From a virus (Duplodnaviria; Heunggongvirae; Uroviricota; Caudoviricetes), in IMG/VR virus record IMGVR_UViG_2778261182_000004: 11,477 bases of DNA; one strand, written 5' to 3'. The position numbers and the translations under genes were made by a program. Positions 1 through 9,722 of the stretch are shown piece by piece. Under the pieces are notes generated by a model. It made no database searches and was not told the DNA's origin. It was given only the letters and a program-made list of their open reading frames with translations. How positions within the stretch are numbered: position 1 is the first letter of the stretch; each line of letters opens with the position of its first letter.

Positions 1-1264
1 GCCCCCCCCCAACCAGTCCCAGTGCCCCACTTAACAGACGACTCCCCACTGACGTGACAGTATTCAGCGTTGTCTGTGCTGCTGTTCTGGCCGCAATATT
101 ACGGGTAAGTGATGCCTGGGCAGCAGCCAGTTTCGCTTCTGCGGCTGCCTGTCTTTCAGTACCACGGGTAGCCGCGACCGCCTGTTGCGCACGATAAACC
201 GCCGCACGCGCCCTGGCGGTTGCTATCTGCGTCCCCCGGAGCTGCGCTTCCGCAAGAGCCACTTCGTTTCTGGTTGCAGTAATTAATCCGGCAGTTGCAG
301 ATCCAGCAGAAGACGCCATATTGCCAAAATATCGGGCTACCCCGACGGCAACCAGAGCACCGGCAGCGGTTGCCACGGTGTCAATATTGCCTGCAAGACC
401 ATTCAGCACACCAGAGAGCGTCTTCGTCACTCCGCTTGCCTCGTTCGCACCACCAACCCAGGCCATAAAGGCGTTTTCAACTTTGGTTGCAGAGGATGAA
501 ACCGTATCAGGCATTGCTGCATATTCATCACGCAACGCCCCAAGCTGACTAATCAGTGCAGGAACAACCTTATCGGCGGTCAGTTTTCCGTTATCCGCCA
601 TGGCCTTCAGATCCTTACGGGCAACGCCCATTCCCGCAGCCAGCGCACGAATAACACGATCACCGCTCTCATTCACGGCGTTAAATTCTTCACCGCGCAG
701 CACTCCCTGCGCCAGTGCCTGGCTGAACTGCGTGATCACCGAACTGGCTTCTGCTGTACTGGCACCGGATAATTTCAGGCCCGTGGAGATCGCCTCGGTG
801 ACTTTCAGTACCTCCTCAGAACTGTAACCATACTCCCGCATGGAAGCTGCAGAGCGGGCAAAAAGGCTGGCGTTATCAGAAAAAGTCGTTCCCGTTCTCT
901 GGCTGATTGCCATTAATTCACGTTGTGATGCCTGAAAATCATCACTGGACTGTGAGGCCTGCTTCAGACGGGCATTGACTGAATTCCACTCATCGGCGAG
1001 AGAAATAAGATGACCGGTAGCAAAAGCCCCGGCAAATGCCCCCGCCATGTTCAGTGCCGAAGATTTAGCTGTATTTATCTGATCCGTCACTTCTGCCAGT
1101 GCACGCCGCATTTCACTGGATGCAGTAGCGGACTGTCGGCCTCCGTTCTGCATGGTGCGGTAGTAATCCTGCCCCATACGCGAAGCCCGGGCGATCTCTG
1201 ACTGGAATGACCGGGAGTTTGCCGAAATTTTAATAATCAGTTCACGTAATGTCGCCACACTCAT
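1..1264 (-). CDS. Tail tape measure protein, N-terminal 421 codons (3' end beyond window)
   Basis: ATG at 1264..1262. I checked every codon of this minus-strand frame down to position 2 and found no stop. Translation begins MSVATLRELIIKISANSRSFQSEIARASRMGQDYYRTMQNGGRQSATASSEM... Follows G/G-T as expected. Not in the ORF track because it is incomplete. Confidence 0.8.
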   Translation of the reverse strand, partial: MSVATLRELIIKISANSRSFQSEIARASRMGQDYYRTMQNGGRQSATASSEMRRALAEVTDQINTAKSSALNMAGAFAGAFATGHLISLADEWNSVNARLKQASQSSDDFQASQRELMAISQRTGTTFSDNASLFARSAASMREYGYSSEEVLKVTEAISTGLKLSGASTAEASSVITQFSQALAQGVLRGEEFNAVNESGDRVIRALAAGMGVARKDLKAMADNGKLTADKVVPALISQLGALRDEYAAMPDTVSSSATKVENAFMAWVGGANEASGVTKTLSGVLNGLAGNIDTVATAAGALVAVGVARYFGNMASSAGSATAGLITATRNEVALAEAQLRGTQIATARARAAVYRAQQAVAATRGTERQAAAEAKLAAAQASLTRNIAARTAAQTTLNTVTSVGSRLLSGALGLVGGG

Positions 1265-1274
1265 TCTCCGGACG

Positions 1275-1296
1275 AAAAAAAACCGCCGAAGCGGTT
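1275..1296 (-). terminator. Hairpin plus U8 between the G-T stop and the tape measure start
   Basis: Minus-strand AACCGC UUCG GCGGUU then eight U; ends 13 nt before the tape measure ATG. Confidence 0.35.
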
Positions 1297-1304
1297 ATGT
1301 TGAC

Positions 1305-1616
1305 TCACTGAGACACGGTTAAAAGCGCGTTTTCCAGCCCGGCAAATGGATCTGAGGCGCCTTCTGTCTGCTCCTGCTCCCACTGAAGAAGCACATCATT
1401 CAGTGGGACTTTAACCCCCTGCGCACCGTAAACAGCTGAAACAATCTGGGCAGCCCGGATATCAGCCCGTTCGTCCCCCAGCGGGCTGAACCTGTCAAAT
1501 TCTGCCCACATCATGATTTCTGATGCGGACATTTCCCGGCGTAACTCTGACAATGTGCGCCCCATCCTGAGCGCCAGCATCATCAGAAAACGCATCCCCG
1601 GAAGCGCTACTTTTTT
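1305..1616 (-). CDS. T portion of the G-T tail assembly chaperone fusion, made by -1 frameshift from G
   Basis: The 1305..1595 ORF is in the -1 frame relative to G and stays open back to the slippery site. Conserved G/G-T arrangement upstream of tape measure genes. Confidence 0.65.
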   Translation of the reverse strand, partial: KKVALPGMRFLMMLALRMGRTLSELRREMSASEIMMWAEFDRFSPLGDERADIRAAQIVSAVYGAQGVKVPLNDVLLQWEQEQTEGASDPFAGLENALLTVSQ

Positions 1617-1993
1617 TTAACCTCTCCGGCATCACTGATCAGTTCCAGAGACTGCCGAAGAAGCCGCGCATGCACCGGGCCATACACGGCAATCACCTGT
1701 TCACGATCATCCTCTGAAAATACGGGTTGCAGTCCGGTATCACACAGAACATCAATGAACAGTTCAACATCTGCCTCCAGATTTCGGCGGGCACGCTCTG
1801 CAACGGATGGCGATGTATCATCTTCCCTGGCTTTAACGATCTCCTGCCAGCGCAACCAGGCTTCTGCAGAAGGTTCCCGTAACACAACCGTTGCTCCTTC
1901 CCATTCAGGCACATCAACGGTTTTATGACGAAACCCAGACATCGTTGCCAGTGCCAGATTACGGATATTTTTAGTCATCACATCCATCCTCAT
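1607..1993 (-). CDS. Tail assembly chaperone G
   Basis: 128 aa, ends EVKKK then TAG at 1609..1607, with the slippery run at its 3' end. Confidence 0.75.
   Translation of the reverse strand: MRMDVMTKNIRNLALATMSGFRHKTVDVPEWEGATVVLREPSAEAWLRWQEIVKAREDDTSPSVAERARRNLEADVELFIDVLCDTGLQPVFSEDDREQVIAVYGPVHARLLRQSLELISDAGEVKKK
1610..1616 (-). promoter_or_regulatory. Programmed -1 ribosomal frameshift site (A AAA AAG)
   Basis: Minus-strand mRNA reads GAG GTT AAA AAA AAG TAG. A -1 slip on A_AAA_AAG continues as GTA GCG CTT CCG GGG ATG CGT TTT CTG..., exactly the frame of the track ORF 1305..1595. Confidence 0.7.
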
Positions 1994-2697
1994 TAACTGA
2001 CGGTAACAGTGCAGGAAGTGGAGGTCACCTTGTTAACCGGGCTTGCTGAATCAGAAATCTCGCAGGTATACGCACCTGCATCACCGGATGCTGCTGATGC
2101 CTTACTGAACGTTGCCGCCGTCTGTCCGGAAACAGGAGAACTACCTTTCTTCCAGACATAAGAATAAGGCGGCACACCACCGGCAGCCTCAACCACCATT
2201 TCGAGTTTCGCTCCGGCAGAAACCTGCAGCGTGCTGTTTAAATCGACCTTCACTTTCAGCGGCGCTGTCGTCAGCACAGGTTTACCTTTCAGGCGCAGGG
2301 AAAACGTTGCAGCCACAACACCATTGGTTCCTGCAGACCAGGTATGCTGACGCACCTCTGCCATAAAGGTAAATCCGTTGCCTGACGGAAAAATAACTTT
2401 AAAGCCATACGTGGTGTCATTGTCATAGGCACTGCGCAACGCGTTCTGGGCAGCATTGAGGTAAAAGTTGCCTGACATGGAAATCTCTGACGCGGCACCA
2501 AGGCCGTTAATATTTTCCTGCTCAGCAGAACACAGCGTGGTGACATCAATATCCTGCTTTTGTCCTGCGGTAAACTGCACCTCTTTGATTGTACAGCTCA
2601 GGCCAAGATAGCTGGCAGAATCCAGGGTTTCTGCTGTTACCGGTGCAGACGAAATCATAATTTTCGTCAGTTGCGAACGCTCAAAATTAGAGGACAT
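1993..2697 (-). CDS. Major tail protein with C-terminal Ig-like domain
   Basis: The ORF track starts at 2748 and would translate through the hairpin above. An ATG at 2697..2695 (MSSNFERSQ...) has AGGAG 7 nt upstream and is my preferred start. The C-terminal ~85 residues look like an Ig-like decoration domain. TAATG overlap with the G chaperone start. Confidence 0.8.
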   Translation of the reverse strand: MSSNFERSQLTKIMISSAPVTAETLDSASYLGLSCTIKEVQFTAGQKQDIDVTTLCSAEQENINGLGAASEISMSGNFYLNAAQNALRSAYDNDTTYGFKVIFPSGNGFTFMAEVRQHTWSAGTNGVVAATFSLRLKGKPVLTTAPLKVKVDLNSTLQVSAGAKLEMVVEAAGGVPPYSYVWKKGSSPVSGQTAATFSKASAASGDAGAYTCEISDSASPVNKVTSTSCTVTVS

Positions 2698-2710
2698 ACT
2701 CGTCTCCTGA

Positions 2711-2736
2711 AAATAAAAAACCCGCCAGCGGCGGGT
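2711..2736 (-). terminator. Hairpin plus U-run upstream of the major tail protein start
   Basis: Minus-strand ACCCGCC GCTG GCGGGT then TTTTTTATTT. Confidence 0.45.
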
Positions 2737-2756
2737 GGATAAAATCATTAACGACC

Positions 2757-7482: not shown

Positions 7483-9240
7483 TCACAGAATTAACAGGTC
7501 CTCATCAGGATCAAGCGTGGACAGAAAGTCATTCACGTCCCCGCCATTTACCAGAAAGCGGCTCATGGCCGTAAAAAGCGCAACAGGGCCGTCGATTTTG
7601 GCTTCAGGCGTGGATTTATTCGGGAAGATATTGTCGTTTTTGTCCGGTTTTACCGTAACGTTAGACATCATCCAGTTCATGACCGGATGATTGCTGTGAT
7701 GGAAACGCCCGGCATAGACCAGTGATTCCGTTTCCTTCATGGCCTCTGACAGATTGCGGACCGTCTGCGGAACCTCCACCAGCGGTATCCCTTCTTCAGC
7801 CAGTGCCAGGCTGAACTGCATCGCGCTCCACGGGTCAAATCCCAGTTCCCTGAGGTTTTCACCACCAATCCATTCCAGTAAGTCACTTTTTATCTGAGCA
7901 TGATCGATAACATCACCATCCGTCAGAATCAGCTTATCCATCTCCGCCCACTTCCGGTAAAGTTCTGCCTGCTGCCGCGAGCATCGTTCCAGCCGTCCTT
8001 CCGGGAGCCAGAATTTAAAATCGGCATGAACATGCCCGTTATCCGTTCGCCAGAGTTTTGCCGCCGCACAGATATCAATCTTATGAGCAAGGTCAACGCC
8101 GACCCACATGGGATACGTTTTCAGCTCATGTCGTGGGGCAATGTATTCGCACTTCTCCCACTTAATCATGTCCATCCAGGCAGACTCGGCAGTGACCCAC
8201 ACATTCATGTGTTTGGTAAAAAAATTCACCCGCGCAGAGACCTGCTCCTTCGCTTTTTTCGCCAGACGACGCAGATCATCCCAGCGTTTACAGATGCCCA
8301 GGCCAGGATTCGCTTTCTGCCAGACCGTTTCATCAAACGGATCATCTCCCTCATCGAGGGTGTAAATGATCGCAAAGTAAGAGTCGTCTTTTACAGCGCC
8401 CTCCACGTCGCTGTTATAGCCACGCAATACCTTGATGGCGTAATCACGCTGCTCGTAACAAATCCCTTCCTTGTTAAACCCTGCCGTGGTGATACCAAAT
8501 AAAAGGGACTGCAGACGGGCACCGGTTGCCGTTTCCAGAACGTCCCACACGTCACGGGTTTTATGTGCATGCAGCTCATCAATAATGGCGCAGTGGATGT
8601 TCAGACCGTCCAGGTTGTTTGCATCCGAGGAAAGCGGTTCAAATTTTGATGCGCTCTGCTCCTGGTAAATCGCCAGCTTGTTGAAGTCAAACAACCGCCC
8701 GAGTGTCGACCGGGCTTTTCTGACCATATTTTTGGCGTCTTCAAACACGATTCTGGCCTGATCACGCGTGGTTGCGGCTGAATACACCTCAGCCCCGCCT
8801 TCACCATCTGCCCCCGTCATATACAGACCAATACCCGATGACAGGGTTGATTTTGCGTTTTTACGGGCAACTTCGTTGTACGCCGTCCGGAACCGGCGCA
8901 CCATCACCGGGCGTCCGCTGCCATCGCTGCGCATGACAACTTCCCCGGTCTCTTCATTCACCAGCGGAATGACAAAACCAAAAATATTAATGAGGATAAA
9001 TACATGCCAGTCCATCAATTCAATGGGCTGGCCTGCCAGCGCCCCTTTCACATGAGGCACAAATTTGTAGAAATTCAGGATGTGCTGCGCACGGGGTTCA
9101 CTGAAATAAATCCCCCGCTCTTCGCCATACTTCAGATCATCAAGAAAACGCTGGCAGGCCAGACGGACAAATTCGCCAGCGACTATTTCTCCTGCAACAA
9201 CACGTTCGGCGTAGCGGATCCCGTCAGCCACTTTTGCCAT
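7483..9240 (-). CDS. Terminase large subunit
   Basis: 585 aa; ATPase-like N-terminal half with a Walker-A-like KNAKST, nuclease-like C-terminal half; located between TerS and portal. Confidence 0.9.
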   Translation of the reverse strand: MAKVADGIRYAERVVAGEIVAGEFVRLACQRFLDDLKYGEERGIYFSEPRAQHILNFYKFVPHVKGALAGQPIELMDWHVFILINIFGFVIPLVNEETGEVVMRSDGSGRPVMVRRFRTAYNEVARKNAKSTLSSGIGLYMTGADGEGGAEVYSAATTRDQARIVFEDAKNMVRKARSTLGRLFDFNKLAIYQEQSASKFEPLSSDANNLDGLNIHCAIIDELHAHKTRDVWDVLETATGARLQSLLFGITTAGFNKEGICYEQRDYAIKVLRGYNSDVEGAVKDDSYFAIIYTLDEGDDPFDETVWQKANPGLGICKRWDDLRRLAKKAKEQVSARVNFFTKHMNVWVTAESAWMDMIKWEKCEYIAPRHELKTYPMWVGVDLAHKIDICAAAKLWRTDNGHVHADFKFWLPEGRLERCSRQQAELYRKWAEMDKLILTDGDVIDHAQIKSDLLEWIGGENLRELGFDPWSAMQFSLALAEEGIPLVEVPQTVRNLSEAMKETESLVYAGRFHHSNHPVMNWMMSNVTVKPDKNDNIFPNKSTPEAKIDGPVALFTAMSRFLVNGGDVNDFLSTLDPDEDLLIL

Positions 9241-9722
9241 CAGTCTCTCGCTTTTAAAAGCTCTGCCAGCGGATCAACATCATCCGGTCCGGCGGTATTT
9301 ACTTTCGCCCGGCTTGCCGGTGACATACCAAATTCTGCAAGCATCGCCCGGATCCGCTTCCAGGCATCCGCTTTCATCGCAGCAGCCGGGTGTGCCTTAA
9401 TCAGCACATCACCGTTCTGCGTTTCCGTGCGGTAGGTGTACCCCTCAACATCGAGTGTTTCGCAGTGATGCCGGTATTCGGTATAGGCTTCCACCAGTAG
9501 CTCAAGCGCACGCGCATCAAGCTGAGAAATGATCCCTTCCGCATTCAGCTCTTCTGCCATTCGCCTGAACCAGTACTTCCCCTGCGCCCCTAAATGTCGC
9601 GGAGTTTTAGGTATCCCTTTTTCATCCTTTTTAGCGGTTTTTTTGGGGTCTTTAACGGGGCGCTTTGAGGGGTTGCCTCGTATCAAATGCAGGCGTGGCG
9701 GGGTTTTCGGGGGTCCAGACAT
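9240..9722 (-). CDS. Terminase small subunit (P27-family-like)
   Basis: N-terminal PPKTPPRLHLIRGNPSKRP resembles the GNPxKRP motif I recall for P27-family small terminases. Its TGA stop shares an ATGA overlap with the TerL start. Confidence 0.75.
   Translation of the reverse strand: MSGPPKTPPRLHLIRGNPSKRPVKDPKKTAKKDEKGIPKTPRHLGAQGKYWFRRMAEELNAEGIISQLDARALELLVEAYTEYRHHCETLDVEGYTYRTETQNGDVLIKAHPAAAMKADAWKRIRAMLAEFGMSPASRAKVNTAGPDDVDPLAELLKARD

Follow-up and report, generated by a model that had tools for sequence, protein, structure and literature searches.

A probable programmed −1 ribosomal frameshift in the tail assembly chaperone gene pair of a Caudoviricetes genome

Two small genes, G and T, stand side by side in the tail gene region of a virus recorded in IMG/VR as IMGVR_UViG_2778261182_000004 (Caudoviricetes), and they are read in different frames. 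Are they expressed as two separate genes, or do some ribosomes pass from G into T by shifting back one nucleotide? RefSeq/PGAP and most phage records give G and T as two genes with no join. We analyzed a stretch of 11,477 nt, called the window here, and conclude that this siphophage pair of tail assembly chaperone genes is very probably expressed through a programmed −1 ribosomal frameshift. The feature is real, it was correctly interpreted in a preliminary description of this DNA, and it is already known; the locus changes no concept. Its value lies mainly in annotation, as RefSeq omits the joined G-T product and starts T at a non-conserved internal ATG. Once the shift is recognized, the protein can be annotated correctly with 224 aa, and the identity of the downstream tape measure gene is confirmed.

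Anatomy of the G/T junction

Every gene at the G/T locus is encoded on the minus strand (Table 1). The anatomy of the site is directly observed, and the same holds for the homology and evolutionary conservation described below. The 3' end of G reads GAG GTT AAA AAA AAG TAG. The slippery heptamer A AAA AAG forms the last two sense codons of G and lies within a run of eight As (1618-1611); exactly as the preliminary description had stated, it directly precedes the stop codon. With its TAG immediately 3' of the heptamer, the site may represent a 'shifty stop' context. In the −1 frame the same region reads GGT TAA AAA AAA GTA GCG CTT CCG GGG ATG and stays open from 1616 to the TGA at 1307-1305. 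The −1-frame TAA directly before the heptamer and the 0-frame TAG directly after it confine a productive frame change to a 10-nt overlap. The claim that the open −1 frame corresponds to the downstream 96-codon ORF is borne out, since the 101-codon stretch contains this ORF, and the junction proposed earlier agrees with the translation. The predicted junction peptide is ...EVKKK|VALPGMRF..., also written as ...EVKKKVALPGMR... or ...VKKKVALPGMRF....

Table 1. Features of the G/T locus and neighboring elements in the window
Feature	Coordinates	Strand	Description and basis
Major tail (tube) protein gene	1993..2748	-	C-terminal Ig-like domain; directly upstream of G; phrog_158 1.4e-109
Alternative in-frame G start	ATG 1993	-	Would give 128 aa
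Gene G, tail assembly chaperone	1607..1978	-	123 aa from ATG 1978; ORF list, translation, PF06222, PDB 2OB9
−1-frame stop TAA	1617..1619	-	Directly 5' of heptamer; −1 translation
Slippery heptamer A AAA AAG, G frame	1610..1616	-	Sequence and pattern match
0-frame stop TAG	1607..1609	-	Directly 3' of heptamer
T segment, −1 frame	1305..1610	-	101 codons: VALPG, then the 96-codon ORF from ATG 1595; PF06223, phrog_14766, phrog_337
96-codon ORF inside T segment	1305..1595	-	Starts at ATG 1595, TGA at 1307-1305
Terminator-like hairpin AACCGCTTCGGCGGTT then T run	1273..1296	-	Between T and tape measure gene; consensus scan
Tape measure gene, 5' part	1..1264	-	Runs off the window; PF20155 TMP_3 2.8e-57, phrog_339 8.7e-191

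The start of G is placed at ATG 1978. PGAP begins the homologue at the equivalent position, and the PF06222 match starts at residue 6 of the 128-aa form, which is the residue encoded by ATG 1978. The G-T fusion would then have 224 aa, or 229 aa from ATG 1993. The predicted fusion is as first described, except that its size is 224–229 aa, depending on the start, instead of about 230 aa.

The gene order, major tail gene, G, T and tape measure gene, fits the G/GT loci of long-tailed phages. Pfam tail-tube and Ig matches in the major tail gene product are weak. The tape measure gene was correctly placed downstream; it begins 40 nt after T, with a start at ATG 1264 or GTG 1258 (PGAP takes the GTG equivalent, the record of phage Evi the ATG equivalent). 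Between T and this gene lies a terminator-like hairpin. Putative rho-independent terminators are also listed in the HK97 and HK633 records, in each case right before the tape measure gene.

The bare motif does not exceed chance: the window has five copies of AAAAAAG where 2.3 are expected, and a count of five was attained in 13 of 200 shuffles. As the bare count is not significant, it was rejected as evidence, and frame, position and conservation were used instead. The 15 minus-strand genes contain ten in-frame X_XXY_YYZ heptamers, and only two of these open a long −1 ORF, the second one being at the terS/terL overlap. Unlike the bare motif, the placement of the heptamer exceeds chance.

Protein families and known G/GT systems

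The product of G matches Pfam family PF06222 (Phage_TAC_1) over profile positions 1-124 of 124 (3.9e-58, 195.2 bits, cut-off 25) and the 'Tail assembly chaperone' chain of PDB entry 2OB9 (2e-49); it also matches phrog_344. T matches PF06223 (Phage_tail_T) over profile positions 1-70 of 73 (5e-20, 72.1 bits, cut-off 25.9) and phrog_337. A single family of 224 columns, phrog_14766, spans G and T together, with T at positions 129-221. When the fused protein was used as a tblastn query, 227 phage records matched, and in 198 of them one place covered at least 80% of the query. Among the 60 matches listed, all such places consist of two pieces, one per frame.

Among the closest known systems are HK97 gp13 and gp13-14 (NC_002167, 7472..8145; gp13 structure, PDB 2OB9), which belong to the same protein families. 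The HK97 record states that gp13-14 is 'translated due to a -1 frameshift', and this homologue is ~61% identical to the window's protein. The HK97-like phages HK75, HK633, HK446 and HK544 match the fused query with 61.5% identity over 100% of its length. HK97 and the window share the order of major tail gene, G, T and tape measure gene, the length of the −1 ORF and the junction pattern K|V..PG..FLM. Two features differ. The HK97 shift site, CGG GAA AAG UCU, is non-canonical and lies five codons before the G stop, whereas the window's heptamer abuts the stop. In HK97 an extra 'moron' gene (gp15) also separates T from the tape measure gene; in the window this space holds the terminator-like hairpin only.

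Phage lambda gpG/gpGT provides the classical comparison (Levin, Hendrix & Casjens 1993; Xu, Hendrix & Duda 2004, 2013, 2014; as cited in the review PMC5009743). According to that review, both G and a minor G-T product are made in lambda and both are required for tail assembly. Lambda resembles the window in shifting by −1 on a heptamer that has A AAG as its last four bases and stands close to the end of G, in its T family (PF06223) and in the location of the locus, with V (major tail gene) on one side and H (tape measure gene) on the other. The junction is again K|V, and lambda ...AGK|VFDGELSFALKLAREMGR lines up with KKK|VALPGMRFLMMLALRMGR of the window. In contrast, the lambda heptamer is G GGA AAG and lies six codons before the G stop, and its T has 144 aa versus 101. 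The G proteins also belong to different families: in Pfam, G of the window matches PF06222 only, while lambda G matches PF06894 (Phage_TAC_2) only. The locus would work like lambda G while standing outside the sequence family of lambda gpG. The earlier statement that a chaperone G is joined to T therefore stands for both protein identities (PF06222 and 2OB9 for the chaperone, PF06223 for T), but the chaperone is of HK97 type and not of the lambda gpG family. In BLASTP, the fused protein of the window and lambda GT show no significant similarity, although the weak alignment does cross the junction, so homology with lambda is carried by the T-domain Pfam model only, to which lambda T scores 54.1 bits.

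A programmed shift of this kind was catalogued by Sharma et al. (2014, NAR 42:7210; PMC4066793, Table S4), who flag their cluster A_AAA_AAG_25, named 'tail assembly chaperone', as true, meaning that a frameshift is expected there. Its representative is ECs1801 of an E. coli O157 Sakai prophage, and no conserved SD was reported for it (PMC4066793). The window and this cluster share motif, gene function and host group. Homologues from Stx phages, 63% identical to the window's GT, carry AGA AAA AAG TAG, and ECs1801 may be of this type or of the window type.

Conservation of the slippery site and the −1 frame

The comparative set of 125 loci was reduced to 30 lineages at the level of 85% G identity, and G identity ranges from 42 to 100%. 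Every lineage keeps a −1 ORF of 96-105 codons, and its shift codon, in the homologous place, is A AAG or A AAA. The site is A AAA AAG in 22 lineages, A AAA AAA in one, G GAA AAG (HK97 type) in four and GCA AAG plus stop in three. A canonical heptamer is therefore kept in 23 lineages, and the shift codon is AAG in 29. In lineages with A AAA AAG, the run is preceded by an A in codons for K, E, R (AGA) and G (GGA) alike. The retention of A whatever residue is encoded points to selection on the nucleotide itself. With the two-frame layout present in 30/30 lineages and the HK97 homologue annotated alike, the assignment to the conserved G/G-T mechanism of long-tailed phages holds.

In PGAP and several phage records T is a separate 96-aa product, 'phage tail assembly protein T', that begins at the equivalent of ATG 1595, as would be expected if T were an independent gene that merely lies next to G and starts at ATG 1595 or at the conserved ATG 1583. 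The latter is −1-frame position +10, and 27 of the 30 lineages have it. However, position +6, which corresponds to ATG 1595, is Met in 10 lineages and Thr, Val, Gly or Ile in the other 20, and CUUCCGGGG precedes this ATG with no spacer and makes a poor SD. Residues further upstream are better conserved. Position +1 is Val in 26/30 lineages and position +4 is Pro in 27/30, with CCG, CCC, CCT and CCA all used; position +8, downstream of this ATG, is Phe in all 30. This conservation with synonymous codon turnover indicates that −1-frame residues upstream of ATG 1595 are under selection at the amino acid level. Since the −1-frame TAA directly precedes the heptamer and no start codon lies between, Val+1 and Pro+4 can be translated only by ribosomes that come from G. 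Met+10, for its part, is one residue of the invariant F-L-M-x-L-A-L motif in the T domain, and the HK97 homologue is annotated as frameshifted. Initiation of T at ATG 1595, which had been named as the scenario that would speak against a shift, is thus opposed by the comparative data, and an independent T gene is extremely unlikely, while some independent initiation may occur at the +10 ATG. In the sense of Xu, Hendrix & Duda (2004), the locus very probably belongs to the G/GT class: its gene order, its −1 frame with a slippery site and its conservation in relatives all correspond. T also has no conserved start codon to itself, and its coding signal runs from the slip site onward, with the reservation that Met+10, within the T motif, may serve as a start.

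Homopolymer variants raise the question of whether a single G-T gene has been split by a frameshift mutation or a sequencing error in the A run of a decaying prophage. Deposited sequences contain an A7 run in L055, L093 and P0006, in which G is extended in the +1 frame, and an A6 run in ETEC1734, in which G and T are fused in frame and flagged as a pseudogene. The IMG/VR records 2529292907_000015 and 2531839448_000005 are also among these A6 and A7 variants. The protein collection also holds a few fused G-T proteins of 191-225 aa (P0001-P0003). These have 1-6 members each and come from short contigs, and in P0001 the A run is 2 nt shorter; we rejected them as a natural single-ORF form and regard them as indel variants or errors. 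The split A8G form, on the other hand, is the overwhelming majority, found in 60 of 62 window-like loci of the IMG/VR sample (the other two have an A7 run). The 121-nt segment occurs with 99% identity or more in 664 E. coli genomes, and the two-frame architecture persists in every one of the 30 lineages, even at 42% identity. Decay has practically no probability as an explanation.

The same tract could also act at the level of transcription. If RNA polymerase slipped on the eight As (T8 on the template strand) and added one more, an A9 mRNA would encode the same G-T protein, and mass spectrometry alone cannot separate the two mechanisms. The site does sit in an 8-A homopolymer, runs of nine A or T are efficient slippage sites for bacterial RNA polymerase (PMC5009743), and the A6 and A7 variants imply that the tract is prone to some slippage, at least by polymerases or in sequencing. 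Eight As, however, is less than the length cited for efficient slippage (PMC5009743). Run length at homologous sites is 9, 8, 7, 6, 4 (HK97 GAAAAG) or 3 (GCAAAG), whereas the A AAG frame stays constant, and the terminal G in 29/30 lineages fits the shiftiness of tRNA-Lys on AAG instead. We consider polymerase slippage very unlikely as the source of G-T, in comparison with a ribosomal shift.

Slip geometry, RNA context and proposed mechanism

Slipping, its rate and its role in tail assembly are described here by analogy with lambda and HK97. Most ribosomes on G would terminate at UAG 1609-1607 and release the 123-aa chaperone. A few would slip back 1 nt on A AAA AAG, with tRNA-Lys re-pairing from AAG to AAA, and would then read GUA GCG CUU and so on into the 224-aa G-T fusion. 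In the slip, this tRNA-Lys might move together with the tRNA-Lys in the P site, or it might occupy the P site and slip by itself, with UAG standing in the A site. By the lambda gpG/gpGT analogy, the G part, common to both products, would coat the tape measure protein, recruitment of the major tail protein would fall to the T part, and the slip rate would thereby fix a high G:GT ratio.

The two geometries make different use of the stop codon. A single P-site tRNA-Lys slipping on A AAG with UAG undecoded in the A site, the extra As being an enhancer only, would be a 'shifty stop', a concept that PMC5009743 and PMC4066793 cite to Weiss et al. 1987. It is nested within the preferred programmed frameshift, which covers both geometries, and competes only with the tandem version. 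The stop directly follows the shift codon in 19/30 lineages, and in the three lineages with only GCA AAG TAA a tandem slip is impossible, as GCA cannot re-pair. In the remaining 11 lineages sense codons follow the shift codon (five in the HK97 type, eight in the Serratia type, four in L036 and one in L017 before the stop), which means that the stop is not required in the family. The full heptamer in 23/30 lineages suggests that P-site re-pairing matters, and tetramers alone are barely shifty in reporters (PMC4066793). We consider the single-tRNA slip rather unlikely.

We looked for RNA elements that could stimulate a −1 shift at the heptamer. In E. coli dnaX (gamma/tau), an SD-like element upstream and a strong hairpin downstream lead to ~50% shifting. 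The dnaX site uses the same heptamer, with tRNA-Lys shiftiness on AAG (PMC4066793), and gives its products in a 1:1 ratio (PMC5009743). There the shifted product is the shorter one, whereas in the window it is the longer one, and neither the SD-like element nor the hairpin is conserved at the window's site. The window does have an SD-like GGAGAGG at 1627-1621, 4-7 nt upstream of the heptamer, but the position reads GGCGAGG in close relatives and unrelated sequence in other lineages; being confined to the window, it was rejected as a stimulator. Folding of the window with upstream sequence pairs the heptamer flanks (z = -3.0), and 140 nt of downstream sequence alone fold strongly (z = -3.68). 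RNAalifold on 20 diverged relatives gave 0 consensus pairs, and the downstream fold was rejected as a conserved stimulator. A local GCGCUC...GGGCGC hairpin lies ~38 nt downstream, too far for a classical stimulator, and overlaps the conserved LALRMGR peptide motif; it was also rejected. An Rfam scan of the whole window found no family at threshold. The locus thus has no dnaX-type stimulated signal, i.e. a conserved SD-like element ~10 nt upstream with an equally conserved, stable hairpin 5-9 nt downstream. For A_AAA_AAG_25, a 130-nt downstream hairpin was reported in 85% of members, with negligible stability excess (PMC4066793), in contrast to the more distant relatives of the window, across which no conserved structure was found.

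For efficiency in E. coli, A_AA.A_AA.G ranks in the top three heptamers (PMC4066793). Heptamers of this class shift at ~0.3% in a reporter with no stimulators, and at up to ~3.7% with a favorable 3' context (PMC4066793).

The length variants allow a further, quite unlikely reading, in which the A8 tract would be a length-variable switch. A8 would give G and little GT, A6 or A9 would give GT only and A7 would give neither in functional form. RNA polymerase slippage could also add measurably to GT, and the G:GT ratio would then be set by two slippage processes and be tunable by mutation. In a related form, the minimal signal of the whole family would be a single-tRNA slip on A AAG helped by an adjacent stop, and the canonical heptamer an enhancer that has evolved more than once, as may be proposed because three site types occur at one homologous codon.

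For the programmed frameshift itself, the lineages form a well-populated comparative series for the recoding catalogue, with A AAA AAG, A AAA AAA, G GAA AAG and GCA AAG-stop at one homologous codon. The prophage module is widespread, being present in 902 of 5426 complete E. coli genomes (~1 in 6).

Anatomy of the G-T junction

Every gene in the window lies on the minus strand. The ORF of G, the tail assembly chaperone gene, ends with GAG GTT AAA AAA AAG TAG (1624→1607, minus-strand reading), and its last heptamer abuts the stop codon, as the preliminary description stated. At the slip stretch the -1 frame reads GGT TAA AAA AAA GTA GCG CTT CCG GGG ATG CGT. Past the TAA it has 101 open codons, ending at TGA 1307-1305, and the final 96 form the downstream ORF with ATG 1595 to which that frame had been assigned. 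If the ribosome slips by -1 at the heptamer, translation yields the expected junction peptide, ...EVKKK-VALPGMRF..., and a fusion of 224 aa (G start at ATG 1978) or 229 aa (ATG 1993), compared with the earlier estimate of about 230 aa. The initial observation is correct in every detail. The slip could be tandem or P-site-only, and both would give the identical protein.

Two in-frame ATGs for G lie within 1978-1995 and give 123 aa (ATG 1978) or 128 aa (ATG 1993). ATG 1993 overlaps the stop of the major tail gene (TTAATG), and AGGATGGA stands just before ATG 1978. The 128-aa form, from mechanical ORF listing, is probably five residues too long, because Pfam homology and the PGAP start both begin at 1978.

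Features of the window discussed in the text
Feature	Position	Strand	Remark
Heptamer A AAA AAG	1616-1610	-	in G frame
G stop TAG	1609-1607	-	0 frame
-1-frame stop TAA	1619-1617	-	closes -1 frame directly 5' of heptamer
Hairpin AACCGC-UUCG-GCGGUU + U run	1273-1296	-	strong, intrinsic-terminator-like
Heptamer T TTA AAA	9252-9258	-	in frame, three codons before terS stop
terS	9240..9722	-	terL overlaps via ATGA
terL	7483..9240	-	

G covers the entire profile of PF06222 (Phage_TAC_1; 3.9e-58) and the T segment matches PF06223 (Phage_tail_T; 5e-20). The PHROGs family phrog_14766 (224 columns) is matched at positions 1-121 by G and 129-221 by T; since it spans both, already-fused versions of the protein define a family. 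The G part also matches PDB entry 2OB9, 'Tail assembly chaperone' (2e-49), which is HK97 gp13. The major tail protein gene lies upstream of G (phrog_158, 1.4e-109). The tape measure gene, anticipated immediately downstream, begins 40 nt past T (PF20155 2.8e-57; phrog_339 8.7e-191). An HK97-like late operon makes up the remainder of the window, in the order GH108 endolysin, HNH endonuclease, TerS, TerL, portal, S78 prohead protease, HK97-fold capsid protein, four connector proteins and tail genes. Inside this operon, the terminator-like hairpin separates the T stop (1305) from the tape measure start (1264/1258). Putative terminators are annotated directly ahead of the tape measure genes in the HK97 and HK633 records, where they flank a 'moron' gene (gp15) absent from the window.

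Conservation of the slip site

The bare motif AAAAAAG is not beyond chance, with five occurrences on both strands of the window against 2.3 expected, and at least five in 13 of 200 shuffles. Its placement in G is unusual. Ten in-frame X_XXY_YYZ heptamers occur among 15 minus-strand genes, and only two open a long -1 ORF, the G site (101 codons) and the terS heptamer T TTA AAA. The -1 frame of the latter is the overlapping terL frame, where a hypothetical slip would add 589 codons and produce a TerS-SERL-TerL fusion; it is probably a trivial by-product of gene overlap. The decisive evidence that the G site is beyond chance is comparative.

Scanning one genome per bacterial and archaeal species yielded 46 loci, viral contigs encoding relatives of G gave 80, and a few named phages were added; six obviously disrupted loci were dropped. 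At 85% G identity the remaining 125 loci group into 30 lineages, which are 42-100% identical to the window; the lineages are not fully independent, and counts are given without a p-value. A -1 ORF of 96-105 codons runs from the homologous codon in all 30. The shift codon at that position is A AAG in 29 lineages and A AAA in one, so its Lys is encoded by AAG rather than the commoner AAA in 29 of 30. The site is A AAA AAG in 22 lineages, A AAA AAA in one, G GAA AAG in four (including HK97 itself) and GCA AAG with a stop directly after in three. Where the site is A AAA AAG, the run is preceded by A whether the codon before it encodes Lys, Glu (GAA), Arg (the rare AGA, in Stx phages) or Gly (GGA). 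The AAG preference and the constant A point to selection on nucleotide sequence rather than on a Lys-Lys peptide.

The HK97-type site, CGG GAA AAG UCU, is five codons before the stop and does not fit the canonical X XXY YYZ. At the Klebsiella/Pantoea-type site, GCA AAG UAA, a single-tRNA slip is the only one possible. These non-canonical homologous sites (loci L005, L133 (HK97) and relatives; L018, L030-L037) provide, within one family, a natural series of different sites at the same codon.

Alternative readings: independent start of T and polymerase slippage

Translation of T from ATG 1595 had been named as a case that would overturn the frameshift reading. In the -1-frame peptide of the 30 lineage representatives, position +6 after the slip, the window's ATG 1595, is Met in just 10 (Thr 13, Val 3, Gly 3, Ile 1). 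Position +1 is Val in 26, +8 is Phe in all 30, and +4 is Pro in 27, encoded by CCG (7), CCC (9), CCT (5) and CCA (6). Conservation at +1 and +4, with Pro in all four codons, indicates amino-acid-level selection on codons 5' of ATG 1595. The window has a -1-frame stop ahead of these codons and no start codon in the interval, so that only ribosomes coming from G can translate them. The sequence before ATG 1595, CUUCCGGGG without a spacer, also makes a poor ribosome-binding site. Met at +10 is kept in 27 of 30 lineages, but as a residue of the T domain's invariant F-L-M-x-L-A-L motif. Independent initiation at this Met is unlikely and is not needed.

RNA polymerase slippage would give the same product, since an A9 transcript encodes exactly the same fusion, and the A8 tract invites it. 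However, the documented cases of efficient slippage are runs of nine (PMC5009743), and run length ranges from 3 to 9 across the family with the A AAG frame unchanged. On this comparison polymerase slippage cannot be the conserved mechanism, with a minor contribution possible in the window; ribosomal frameshifting is the preferred reading.

Run length also varies among deposited relatives (loci L055, L093 (IMG/VR) and L135, E. coli ETEC1734, NZ_CP122801.1 2068200 region; proteins P0001 and P0006). With an A7 run, G continues in the +1 frame to a length of 160 aa (P0006, 54 member sequences), and an A6 run joins G and T in frame, that G being flagged as a pseudogene by PGAP. Such variants reflect either errors in sequencing a homopolymer or true indel alleles.

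Stimulators, known systems and annotation

On E. coli ribosomes A_AA.A_AA.G ranks among the top three heptamers in efficiency, since the pairing of tRNA-Lys(UUU) is poor with AAG and perfect after re-pairing with AAA (PMC4066793). In a reporter without stimulators such heptamers show ~0.3% shifting, and a favourable 3' context raises this ~12-fold, to ~3.7% (PMC4066793). The latter would be of the order of the G:GT ratio of 30:1 reported for lambda (PMC5009743). The SD-like GGAGAGG that lies 4-7 nt upstream of the heptamer in the window lacks conservation in relatives. The downstream 140 nt fold unusually well (z = -3.68); RNAalifold found no conserved pair in 20 diverged relatives, and an Rfam search gave no match. 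Among the elements sought by sequence comparison (SD-like element, downstream fold, Rfam), we found no candidate for a conserved stimulator. A 0-frame stop directly follows the shift codon in 19 of 30 lineages and could work as a 'shifty stop' (Weiss et al. 1987, as cited in PMC5009743); it is not obligatory, because HK97-type and Serratia-type sites lack it.

The HK97 homologue is annotated as 'translated due to a -1 frameshift'. The lambda junction, ...AGK followed by VFDGELSFALKLAREMGR, aligns with KKK followed by VALPGMRFLMMLALRMGR in the window; the slip sits at the homologous place and has the same Lys-Val junction. Window G falls outside PF06894, the Pfam family of lambda gpG; the G-T product combines a chaperone of HK97 type with a T domain of lambda type. 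Of the two bacteriophage cases that Sharma et al. 2014 list as expected and true, one is the prophage cluster A_AAA_AAG_25, 'tail assembly chaperone', with no conserved SD and only a marginal hairpin (PMC4066793). That lambda has a G/GT frameshift, conserved across tailed phages, is textbook knowledge (Levin 1993; Xu 2004, 2013, 2014, as cited in PMC5009743). The frameshift site is real, and its interpretation as the conserved G/G-T frameshift of long-tailed phages is supported. Both the mechanism and the family to which this case belongs were already known.

In 869 of 5426 complete E. coli genomes, prophages share 95-99% identity with the 901-nt region surrounding the site, and 902 genomes have some kind of match; 11 E. 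coli phage records match as well, Evi and phi467 among them. All annotated records inspected have G and T as separate genes, T starting at the equivalent of ATG 1595, and none has a joined G-T CDS. In practice the finding matters only in that annotations of a very common E. coli prophage currently omit the joined product. Phage vB_EcoM-606R7 (L001, ON470580.1 5563-6236) has three overlapping 'tail assembly chaperone' CDSs over the G-T region (372, 138 and 207 nt) and a normal A8G slip site; this looks like an annotation artefact.
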